Positions 1 to 8,116 of a stretch of DNA of 8,116 nt are shown here, piece after piece. Origin of the DNA: Verrucomicrobiota bacterium. GTDB taxonomy: Bacteria > Verrucomicrobiota > Verrucomicrobiia > Chthoniobacterales > UBA6821. The position numbers and the translations under genes are program-made. Location: assembly GCA_008932965.1 (NCBI GenBank), contig WBXG01000069.1:1-8116 (forward strand). The letters are read 5' to 3'. The notes beneath the pieces were generated by a model that saw only the letters and a list, made by a program, of their open reading frames with translations, did not search any database and was not told the origin of the DNA. Position 1 is the stretch's first letter; each line of letters opens with the position of its first letter.

Positions 1-116
1 AGGGCTGCCCCCCTTCAAGCCAGGGCAGTCTCCCCCGCGGTCTCCTGACCGCCGGTGGTGCCTGCATCAGGATTCGCGGCGCTTCGCGAGCAATCAGTAT
101 GAAATATCCGAGTTAA
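1..116 (-). mobile_element. Partial copy A of the MITE-like TIR/foldback repeat family; the left part lies outside the window
   Basis: Ends with AGTATGAAATATCCGAG (96-112) plus TTAA (113-116). This is the same terminal repeat as the right ends of copies B (2411-2431) and C (6087-6106). The reverse complement of 1-116 aligns with the left two-thirds of copy C, sharing ATTTCATACTGATT, CGAA..CCTGATG, AGACTGCC and GAAGG, at roughly 55-65% by eye. It therefore appears inverted relative to B/C/D. The interior is GC-rich, unlike the flanking DNA. Hairpin CCCGCGGT-ctcctg-ACCGCCGG at 34-55. Confidence 0.6.
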
Positions 117-5948: not shown

Positions 5949-6106
5949 TTAACCCGCACATTTCATACTGATTCTGCTGCGGCTTGCGAACACCTGATGG
6001 ATAACGACACTAGCTGTAGAAGTACAGACTGCCTGAGGAAGGCCTCGAGATCAACACAGCATCCACACCAGCTTTTACTGGTGATAAGTATGAAATATTC
6101 AGGTTA
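5949..6106 (+). mobile_element. Complete copy C (158 bp) of the MITE-like repeat family, second subfamily
   Basis: Left end TTAACCCGCACATTTCATACT (5949-5969) and right end AGTATGAAATATTCAGGTTAG (6086-6106) form the family TIR. The interior is homologous to the reverse complement of copy A and only weakly to B/D, for example GCGGCTTGCGAACACC against ACAGCTTGTGGAAAGC. The central hairpin is CTGTA-gaag-TACAG (6014-6027). The flanks are TTAA and TTAG. Confidence 0.7.
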
Positions 6107-6182
6107 GGGGTCATAGCTCAGTTGGTAGAGCGCCTCAATGGCATTGAGGAGGTCTGGGGTTCGAATCCCCATGGCTCCACCA
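6107..6182 (+). tRNA. tRNA-Ala (anticodon GGC), 76 nt with genomically encoded CCA
   Basis: Hand-folded cloverleaf. Acceptor stem: GGGGTCA/TGGCTCC, with the G3:U70 alanine identity pair. D arm: GCTC-AGTTGGTA-GAGC. Anticodon arm: CCTCA-AT[GGC]AT-TGAGG. Variable loop: AGGTC. T arm: TGGGG-TTCGAAT-CCCCA. The discriminator is A73, followed by CCA. Confidence 0.95.
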
Positions 6183-6678: not shown

Positions 6679-7962
6679 ATGAGTACACATCGTTTTGCTC
6701 TTGTGGATTGCAATAACTTTTTCTGCTCCTGCGAGAGAGTCTTTAACCCACGACTTCATAAGGCTCCTATCGTTGTTTTGAGTAATAACGATGGATGTAT
6801 TATCTCGCGTAGCCAAGAAGCGAAAAATCTAGGGATTCCAATGGGGGCCCCTCTTCATGAGCAGCAGGAAGTGATTCAAAAAAATAGAGTGCATGTCTTG
6901 AGTTCTAACTACACCCTCTATGGTGATATGTCTGCTCGGGTGATGTCGATTTTACGAGAGGAGGTCTCAGCAGTTGAAGTCTACTCGATTGATGAAGCAT
7001 TCCTGGAGCTTCCTGAAAAATTTGATGAAAAGGCTGCCAGCAATCTTCGAGCAAAGGTGTTACGATGGACTGGCATCCCTGTCTGCATAGGCATGGGAAC
7101 TACAAAGCTCCTTGCGAAATTCTCTAATCACTATGCAAAGAAAAATCCCTGTTTTGGTGGTATTGTTGAATTAGAAAATCATCCCTTTTTCAATGATATC
7201 ATGGCTTCTACTCGCACAGGTGATCTATGGGGAGTAGGAAAAAATCTTGAACGAAGGCTCCAACATCTTGGGATTACAACAGTCTTAGAGTTCAAAAATG
7301 CCAATCCTGCTTCTATTAGAAAGGAGTTGGGGGTCGTAGGAGAAAGACTTCTTCGAGAGTTAAATGGAATCTCCTGTATGAGTTTAGAAGAGATACCTCC
7401 AGCTCGCAAGGGAGTCATGGCTTCTAGATCTTTTGGGAGTTCTGTAGAGTCTCTCGAGGAGCTTGAAGAGGCTCTTGCCAACCATGTGGCTCGTGCTTCT
7501 GAAAAAATTCGGCGCTTCGGACTACTGGCATCGCACCTTCAAGTCTCTCTTCAGACCAATCGTTTTAAAAAAGAAGAACCACAGTATGCTCCTACAATAG
7601 AACATGCTCTCCTTACTCCTACGGCTTCCACTTCCCAATTAATGAATGTTGCACGGAGGATGCTTAGCTCGATCTACCGCTCAGGATACCGCTACAAGAA
7701 AACGGGAATTTTTCTTGGAGGATTAGTTTCTGAGGATTCCTTTCAACCGAGCCTTTTTGATATTCCAGTCACAAATCCAAGGGGTGATATTGATAAAATT
7801 TGTGATGCGATCAACAAGAAGCTAGGAGATCCCAAGAACCCAATGATTACACGTGCTTCCCAGGGAACTAAACAATCCAGTAAAGGATGGAAAATGAGAT
7901 CTCAAAGGCGTTCCCCTCGCTACACAACCGATTGGAGAGAACTTCCCATAGCAAGAATCTAG
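6679..7962 (+). CDS. umuC: Y-family DNA polymerase, UmuC (Pol V catalytic subunit)
   Basis: 427-aa ORF whose ATG lies 2 nt after the umuD stop. FALVDCNNFFCSCERVFNPRL..APIVVLSNNDGCIISRSQEAKNLGIPMGAP matches the UmuC N-terminus (catalytic Asp). SIDEAFL provides the catalytic Asp-Glu, and LWGVGK is present. The C-terminal SPRYTTDWRELP motif is typical of full-length UmuC/MucB proteins. Confidence 0.9.
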   Translation: MSTHRFALVDCNNFFCSCERVFNPRLHKAPIVVLSNNDGCIISRSQEAKNLGIPMGAPLHEQQEVIQKNRVHVLSSNYTLYGDMSARVMSILREEVSAVEVYSIDEAFLELPEKFDEKAASNLRAKVLRWTGIPVCIGMGTTKLLAKFSNHYAKKNPCFGGIVELENHPFFNDIMASTRTGDLWGVGKNLERRLQHLGITTVLEFKNANPASIRKELGVVGERLLRELNGISCMSLEEIPPARKGVMASRSFGSSVESLEELEEALANHVARASEKIRRFGLLASHLQVSLQTNRFKKEEPQYAPTIEHALLTPTASTSQLMNVARRMLSSIYRSGYRYKKTGIFLGGLVSEDSFQPSLFDIPVTNPRGDIDKICDAINKKLGDPKNPMITRASQGTKQSSKGWKMRSQRRSPRYTTDWRELPIARI

Positions 7963-8116
7963 CCCGCATATTTCACACTAAATCTATTACGGCTTGTGGA
8001 AAGCTTATCATCACTGCGTTGGTCTCGAATTGTGATTTGGGCAGTATGAAACATACAGCCCGGCATCCCAATCCTTCGTCCGCCTTGTACTAATAAGCTT
8101 TGCACGGCGCCTCATA
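7959..8116 (+). mobile_element. Partial copy D of the MITE-like repeat family, B subfamily; the right ~27-30 nt lie outside the window
   Basis: The core begins CCCGCATATTTCACACT at 7963, directly after the umuC stop TAG (7960-7962); the flanking tetranucleotide is CTAG (7959-7962). It aligns gap-free to B 2250-2403 at about 82% identity. The central hairpin is GGGCAGTATG-aaa-CATACAGCCC (8039-8061). Confidence 0.7.

Follow-up and report, generated by a model that had tools for sequence, protein, structure and literature searches.

The four copies of a dispersed repeat (A to D) in the window, i.e., the whole stretch of 8,116 nt analysed here, are IS1380-type MITEs whose centre is a fixed sequence probably derived from fused inner parts of terminal repeats, and the hairpin at positions 34-55 is stem P3 of a separate module nested within the repeat. 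Copies A to D belong to one MITE family, which has terminal repeats of IS1380-family type (CCCGNATATTTCAYAC...) and, on insertion, duplicates a 4-bp YTAR target that is TTAA in most cases. The original prediction had assigned one stem-loop to each of the copies, and all four were found in place with the pairs given for them: 34-55 in A (7 bp and a C:C mismatch), 2326-2348 in B (10 bp, one of them G:T), 6014-6027 in C (5 bp) and 8039-8061 in D (9 bp and an A:A mismatch). The features are listed below in window positions, with the strand where one is assigned.

1-116: copy A, the rightmost 116 nt of a composite MITE of ~275 nt (BLAST of 1-95 gave 88-95% identity to the interiors of 265-285-nt elements bounded by terminal inverted repeats)
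1-62, plus strand: 3' part of the nested module (P2, linker, P3 and tail GGTGGT); window 1-67 matches positions 35-91 of covariance model R1 with 32.3 bits and E 2.4e-7, cut at the 5' side
5-28, plus strand: module hairpin P2, CTGCC 5-9 with GGCAG 24-28 and a 14-nt loop (MFE fold; covaries)
34-55, plus strand: module hairpin P3, CCCGCGGT / ACCGCCGG, with a conserved C:C mismatch and loop CTCCTG (covariation)
94-112: right terminal inverted repeat of A, TCAGTATGAAATATCCGAG
113-116: TTAA target-site duplication of A (table of end tetramers)
2246-2431: copy B, a complete 186-nt MITE, composed as TTAA, terminal inverted repeat 2250-2268, interior, terminal inverted repeat 2409-2427, TTAA (hairpin fold over the whole length)
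2326-2348: centre of B, GGGCTGTATG-AAA-CATACAGCTC, read as a fusion of inner terminal-repeat parts
5949-6107: copy C, a degenerate and rearranged MITE of 159 nt with ends TTAA and TTAG
6014-6027: 5-bp hairpin of C, CTGTA-GAAG-TACAG, possibly a decayed centre, at chance level
6107-6182, plus strand: tRNA-Ala(GGC), the first base of which is the last base of C's TTAG
7959-8116: copy D, a MITE of the B type truncated where the contig ends (complete 186-nt orthologue at L001:13226-13411)
8039-8061: centre of D, GGGCAGTATG-AAA-CATACAGCCC, carrying the A:A mismatch typical of the family

The elements of the window are short (159-186 nt), contain no ORFs, and share a terminal inverted repeat of 19-25 nt which is 88-92% complementary; six matches to the terminal repeat were found, where 0.01 were expected. 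B and C are complete, A is cut by the contig start and D by the contig end, and together they make up 619 of the 8116 nt (7.6%). Positions 1 and 8116 both lie inside MITE copies, i.e., the assembly was broken by the repeat. Rfam 15 recognized only the tRNA in the window and nothing on full composite copies. Copy C was found at its own locus only; its left arm is of the L-c type for ~56 nt, and the remainder is unique. B folds into one long imperfect hairpin (-62.2 kcal/mol, z -7.0), while the fold of C is weak (z -2.8) and that of the A fragment unremarkable (z -0.9). The reported 5-bp hairpin of C is absent from the MFE fold of this copy, and was considered to be at chance level since mononucleotide shuffles of C contain ~0.84 hairpins of at least 5 bp per element. 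The longest perfect run in A, 6 bp, was matched by 17% of shuffles, and the 8-bp run in B by 2.4%, the latter being the sole single-sequence stem that stands out. Single hairpins are thus weak evidence, and significance comes from families only.

In a repeat-pattern scan of representative genomes, most of the matches listed came from four Chthoniobacterales/"Spartobacteria" MAGs. Chthoniobacterales MAGs contain very large numbers of the MITEs: 665 kb of Chthoniobacterales-dominated loci, representing at least 4 MAGs, gave 350 hits to the repeat and 129 elements bounded by it. Eighty of the bounded elements measured 180-189 nt and ~16 measured 260-285 nt, with a few shorter ones. The end tetramers were identical at both ends in 75 of 117 elements (TTAA/TTAA 59, CTAG/CTAG 11, CTAA/CTAA 3 and TTAG/TTAG 2), and the inverted combination CTAA/TTAG was never seen among the 117. 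Because the non-palindromic combinations CTAA/CTAA and TTAG/TTAG occur and the inverted one does not, the tetramers are direct duplications of a YTAR target. One insertion polymorphism was observed between L001 and L003, two strains with identical BioF protein. The first carries two abutting elements sharing one TTAA (L001:17940-18305) and the second a single element (L003:10567-10751), the extra MITE being placed at the TTAA beside the resident copy. From this difference, the MITE seems to have been active recently and to favour sites next to copies already present.

The affiliation with IS1380 was obtained from a Prevotellaceae MAG, in which a TTAA-flanked IS of 1741 bp (L054:1548-3288) has the ends CCTACATATTTCATACT...AGTATGAAATATTCAGG, which agree with the MITE ends in 17 of 21 positions. 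Its transposase of 461 aa matched Pfam DDE_Tnp_1_4 (2.5e-122) and NCBIfam transpos_IS1380 (NF033539; 7.1e-101). Since an IS with nearly the same ends encodes an IS1380-family transposase, the repeats were classified as IS1380-type MITEs. The IS1380 family is described in ISfinder as having a 4-5-bp duplication and ends starting with CC; ends beginning with CC and a 4-bp duplication were both found here, as in IS1380, ISEcp1 and IS942, whereas the transposase gene is absent from the elements described here. IS1380 transposases are the prokaryotic outgroup of piggyBac, a TTAA-specific eukaryotic transposon (PMC10813416), and the TTAA target of the MITEs recalls that of piggyBac. A tblastn search with the L054 transposase over 1.29 Mb of loci (8-kb blocks of draft MAGs) gave no further match, and no IS1380-family transposase in the Chthoniobacterales loci among them; the search for an autonomous partner by long-range repeat pairs, or by ORFs beside solo repeats in other phyla, returned only the Prevotellaceae IS. 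Small elements with the same terminal repeats and unrelated interiors are present in other Verrucomicrobiota, proteobacterial and Planctomycetia MAGs (L043:6335-6475, L060:2265-2402, L045:253-334, L029:52-325); thus, the same type of transposase has spawned several MITE families. Neither an IS1380-derived MITE nor a Verrucomicrobia MITE was found described in the literature, and the IS1380-type, TTAA-targeting family appears to be undescribed, as far as these searches show.

The size class of 260-285 nt explains the first copy of the window. A corresponds to the last 116 nt of this composite class, which consists of an ordinary element of ~185 nt and a GC-rich insert of ~85-95 nt. Full composites (e.g., L089:1686-1960 and L023:288-552) keep the ordinary centre, GGRCAGTATG-loop-CATACAGCC, at ~position 86. 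The ordinary centre of A would fall upstream of the contig start, and therefore the stem found in A is not at the place of the stem in B and D. Homology between these stems was rejected, as 34-55 sits in the nested insert. The hairpin had been described as lying near the mid-point of every copy, a description which fails for A, where 34-55 is located 62-83 nt from the right end of the composite form. At the site upstream of the PUA/SAM-methyltransferase gene, the long composite is found here (1-116) and the plain form of 186/187 nt at the corresponding place in related strains (L001:5196-5381 and L004:2836-3022).

The central stem was aligned over 71 distinct oriented copies of ~185 nt from all subfamilies, the common form to which B and D belong. 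The consensus GC-N-GTATG / CATAC-N-GC was the same in every subfamily, and the core pairs consisted of the same bases in 67-70 of the 71 copies. Pair 5 of the 10-pair stem was unpaired (A:A or G:A) in 69 copies, with B among the two Watson-Crick exceptions. A change from GGGC to GGAC breaks one pair in 21 copies without compensation, and a compensated change from A-T to G-C was seen in only 3 copies, all from one MAG. The information content was 1.5-1.9 bits in the central stems and 1.7 in the terminal repeats, compared with 1.0-1.1 in the arms. RNAalifold on the 71 copies gave no consensus centre, only terminal-repeat pairing. What is conserved at the centre of the MITE is its sequence; it is not a covarying structure. 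The idea of one central hairpin kept with wholly different stems between subfamilies is not supported: the stem sequence is the same everywhere, and the comparison of A with B and D is one of non-homologues, an artefact which arose because A was truncated by the contig start. Covariation on the central stem, which the original prediction had anticipated, was 0.027 over the 71 copies (5 double-change cells in 663). No covarying pairs were supported, which is the outcome that the original prediction itself had named as its refutation, with the hairpin then explained by an inverted duplication. Truncation of one repeat copy by the contig start had given two unrelated hairpins the appearance of a single covarying structure, which calls for caution; the MITE centre itself is ordinary transposon anatomy.

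Covariation had also been expected for the long-range stems, and the arms do co-vary. The median fold z was -7.9 over 77 short copies, all of which folded far better than their shuffles. When the fold of B was mapped on the 71 copies, 76% of cells were paired against 30-40% with slid partners, and 212 arm cells had double changes, where shuffles gave 110 and slid controls 57-117. At several arm pairs, three Watson-Crick types were seen. When six subfamilies were compared in a matrix, the left arm was most complementary to its own right arm in 6/6 cases (59-68%, off-diagonal 44-62%), from which it follows that foldback pairing has been maintained since the subfamilies split. The left arms are 56-80% identical to each other, which is above their identity to the reverse complements of the right arms (44-68%). 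The complementarity could reflect selection for a snap-back or cruciform, or repair of one arm templated by the other. Between subfamilies, arms have been exchanged at the centre; the chimeras fold worst, and those that fold poorly (z -2.6 to -4) are singletons. No orientation bias of the MITEs relative to flanking ORFs was detected (19 vs 11; 41 vs 35), nor were there promoter-like or terminator-like signals within the copies, and for these reasons a role of the MITE at the RNA level is without support.

As to the origin of the centre, its 5' half, CAGTATGAAA, is the same as the innermost 10 nt of the terminal repeat on the right, and its 3' half, CATACAG, corresponds to inner sequence of the one on the left. 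Back to back, the two halves read CAGTATGAAA | CATACAG, as in a pair of abutting terminal repeats reduced to their inner stretches. The full match of 10 nt occurs only in the subfamilies with an AAA loop, while loops such as TACAC leave 7 nt. Two half-elements of 105 nt were found. L011:2487-2591 follows the L-c left half up to ...GGGCAGTATGAAA and continues into a full repeat, |TATCCGAGTTAA, where full-size forms read ...GGGCAGTATGAAA|CATACAGCC... at the same junction. L069:5955-6059 starts with a full repeat, TGAACCCGGATATTT, followed by |CATACAGCCGT... exactly as in the right half. The earlier suggestion that the stem holds the inner part of the terminal repeat, either as an internal protein-binding motif or through dimerisation, is supported by these half-elements. 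Abutting elements with one common TTAA are frequent (L001:18120, L016:339 and others). Head-to-head neighbours of this type would give a perfect palindrome of 44 nt, and removal of a tip of ~23 nt gives 2 x 105 - 4 - 23 = 183 nt, against the observed 184-186 nt.

The centre is most likely the scar of a head-to-head dimerisation, a reading adopted because its halves match the repeats, the 105-nt forms have a full repeat at this place, and the length fits. In such a scenario, two elements of ~105 nt would have come to lie head-to-head with one TTAA in common; the tip of the palindrome (~23 nt, TATCCGGG-TTAA-CCCGGATATTT) would then have been lost, and the dimer may have been mobilised by its two outer repeats and subsequently amplified. 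The family is a clear sequence-based candidate for a foldback MITE that arose from a pair of small elements abutting each other. Judged by eye, the two 105-nt forms are roughly 90% identical to halves of living subfamilies, and they could also be slipped-deletion products of the dimer, since CAGTATGAAA is present as a direct repeat both in the centre and at the right end.

Independently of how it arose, the centre may still matter, as a putative internal transposase-binding site or as a hinge of the foldback. That it is kept for such a function, either as an internal pair of transposase-binding sites or by nucleating a snap-back or cruciform which joins the outer repeats of a short and stiff element of ~185 bp, we regard as plausible, although we lean against it. 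The centre is conserved to the same degree as the terminal repeats, in contrast to the arms, where identity has dropped to 56-80%, it contains the inner motif of the repeat, AGTATG(AAA), conserved also in the Prevotellaceae IS, the poorly folding arm chimeras are singletons, and the 185-nt form outnumbers the 105-nt form ~40 to 1. On the other hand, recombination could explain the conservation by homogenisation, since arms exchange at the centre, and copies with the module inside the central hairpin (279-282 nt; L031, L032, L068, L022 and L072) are still present at several different loci, so an intact centre is not strictly required. The retained inner repeat segments as internal binding sites are nevertheless a testable idea.

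We consider it unlikely that a single old inverted duplication left the foldback, tip included, as a neutral by-product, with a coincidental match to the repeat and with the 105-nt forms as deletion products. The closeness of the 105-nt forms to halves of living subfamilies, a 10-nt direct repeat that could mediate deletion, and left arms resembling each other above the right-arm reverse complements would all agree with it; however, a match of 9-10 nt to the conserved inner repeat has, by our own estimate, a chance of ~0.001 in an interior of 140 nt, conservation in the centre greatly exceeds that in the arms, and in each of the six subfamilies complementarity is highest between an arm and its own partner. 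Least probable is structural selection on the central hairpin as RNA or DNA cruciform, with a stem free to change as long as pairing is kept: the hairpin is indeed kept at the centre of all ~185-nt copies, GTGTG/CACAC replaces GTATG/CATAC in three or four copies of one MAG, and the arms co-vary, but the stem has the same sequence in every subfamily with its mismatch conserved in 69/71, the GGAC variant is uncompensated, RNAalifold returns no consensus centre, the hairpin of A is not homologous to the centre, and neither gene-orientation bias nor promoter-like or terminator-like signals were found.

The hairpin at 34-55 is structure-conserved with many compensatory changes, as had been proposed; it belongs, however, to a separate nested element and not to the centre of the MITE. 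This module measures ~85-95 nt and comprises a 5' box of 22 nt, hairpins P1 and P2, a linker AGTCTAYCC, P3 with a C-rich loop, and a tail, i.e., the box TTGACTCGCTCGCNCCNGCTCG followed by three covarying hairpins. For 25 diverse copies, the covariation of the three stems was 0.381 against 0.144 in shuffles (0/500 reached the value) and at most 0.173 in slid controls. The C:C mismatch of P3 was kept in 22 of 23 copies, and each of the five inner P3 pairs showed 3-5 Watson-Crick types in the 25 copies as well as in 133 distinct copies. In these 133, with an alignment fitted to the model, 84.8% of cells were paired compared with 29-47% in slid controls, and double changes occurred in 16/16 pairs. 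The covariance model R1, built from the 25 diverse copies, recovered 40 copies from the initial locus set and 140 from the metagenome loci listed. The module has a wide distribution in metagenomes of soil, peat and lakes, for the most part outside MITEs: in a metagenome scan with the 22-nt 5' box, 111 of the 122 copies among the matches listed had no IS1380-type repeat nearby.

Within the MITE, several sequence variants of the module were found at two sites, the right arm and the inside of the central hairpin, and in both orientations; the module also occurs beside a solo repeat (L071) and free-standing (L038). One MITE, L193:8040-8435, carries two module variants, a reverse one inside the central hairpin and a forward one in the right arm. 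Arm-to-arm copying was rejected for this pair, which consists of two different variants at two sites. The flanks of the module are unrelated directly before TTGAC and directly after the tail (GGTGKT or GTATT), and neither a terminal inverted repeat nor a target duplication of the module was found. TTGAC as a pre-existing target site was rejected, as it is absent from empty MITE sites. Pairing of GACT in the 5' box with AGTC in the linker was, by inspection, not kept in the variants. The module stems had 53 G:T and 52 A:C mismatches, and the loop motifs point to the opposite strands. No recurrent neighbour gene family and no orientation bias relative to genes were observed for the module. Rfam gave no match to the module on 20 stand-alone loci, only nearby Acido-Lenti-1 and tRNA; Acido-Lenti-1 RNA (RF01687) was located 180-500 nt from module copies in L198:837-882, L163:38-83 and L207:550-595. 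Literature searches for the box sequence returned nothing relevant.

Module copies cluster, and a mild enrichment near tRNAs was noted, with 8 of 122 copies within 400 nt among the matches listed. On the minus strand of L128:150-1250, a tRNA-Arg is followed by seven tandem units of ~142 nt, with the module between GGTTCGATT and ATTCCCGCCGGGGACA, where it splits a copy of the T-arm and 3' end of the tRNA; the same arrangement is present in L153 and L185. In other lineages, the module is placed directly inside the left end of small inverted-repeat elements (L165, L111, L133, L097 and others), e.g., TTGTAGGGCGT...ACGCCCTACAA. A second group of this kind, CCCTCATCC...GGTGAGGG (L104, L114, L152, L167 and others), also has a CTCTCC-N4-GGAGAG palindrome.

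The module shares with REP/PATE and attC families a small size, the lack of terminal inverted repeats and of a target duplication, dispersed and sometimes tandem occurrence, covarying stems with a short fixed box, and a position inside repeats and near tRNAs. A classification as integron attC was rejected, since GTTGACT is found at the 5' end only, without a complementary 3' partner, i.e., there is no complementary pair of R'' (RYYYAAC) and R' (GTTRRRY), and no recurrent neighbour gene. Classification as a REP element or an IS200/605-type end was likewise rejected for the missing defining boxes or neighbours, there being no GTAG/CGTC tag and no recurring RAYT, TnpA or integrase neighbour. To our knowledge, the 22-nt 5' box does not occur in REP/PATE or attC families. 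Window 1-62, including 34-55, may represent an undescribed, widespread and self-spreading family of structured elements in Verrucomicrobiota and other soil and freshwater bacteria, inserting without terminal repeats or duplication, often into repeats and beside tRNA-like sequences, and being either a new mobile element or a class of ncRNA that hitch-hikes on MITEs; on this proposal our belief and doubt are nearly balanced, with doubt slightly ahead. A widespread module with strong covariation and no known family is nevertheless the part worth pursuing and potentially a new item.

Gene-less intergenic elements of 100-200 nt, with terminal inverted repeats of ~25 nt and a short target duplication, are known as Correia elements (NEMIS/CREE) in Neisseria, ERIC, RUP and Nezha. 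Foldback MITEs of the Correia type reach very high copy numbers, form long hairpins, have length variants in internal segments, and insert beside genes and tRNAs. The elements described here are likewise small gene-less foldbacks with terminal inverted repeats, many copies and length variants. They differ in their unrelated terminal repeats, in the 4-bp YTAR/TTAA duplication instead of TA, and in the host, Chthoniobacterales (Verrucomicrobiota). In addition, the centre is a truncated pair of terminal repeats here, whereas Correia elements have an IHF site. A modular composition is shared with BOX of Streptococcus pneumoniae and with BIMEs, as the structured cassette may be present, absent or duplicated (two in L193), but the cassette is independent here, mostly outside the MITE and present in many other lineages.

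The MITE family fragments Chthoniobacterales assemblies and sits against genes and a tRNA. The right TTAG of C (6104-6107) ends on the first base of tRNA-Ala(GGC), and transcription of this tRNA must therefore start within the MITE or pass through it; no sigma-70-like promoter was found upstream of the tRNA within C. An identical BioF-like protein is encoded on several metagenome contigs and in one NCBI MAG, all of which match this contig. The CTAG duplication of D (7959-7962) holds the TAG stop of an umuC-like gene (6679-7962), so that the insertion lies exactly at the end of the gene and the protein is unchanged.
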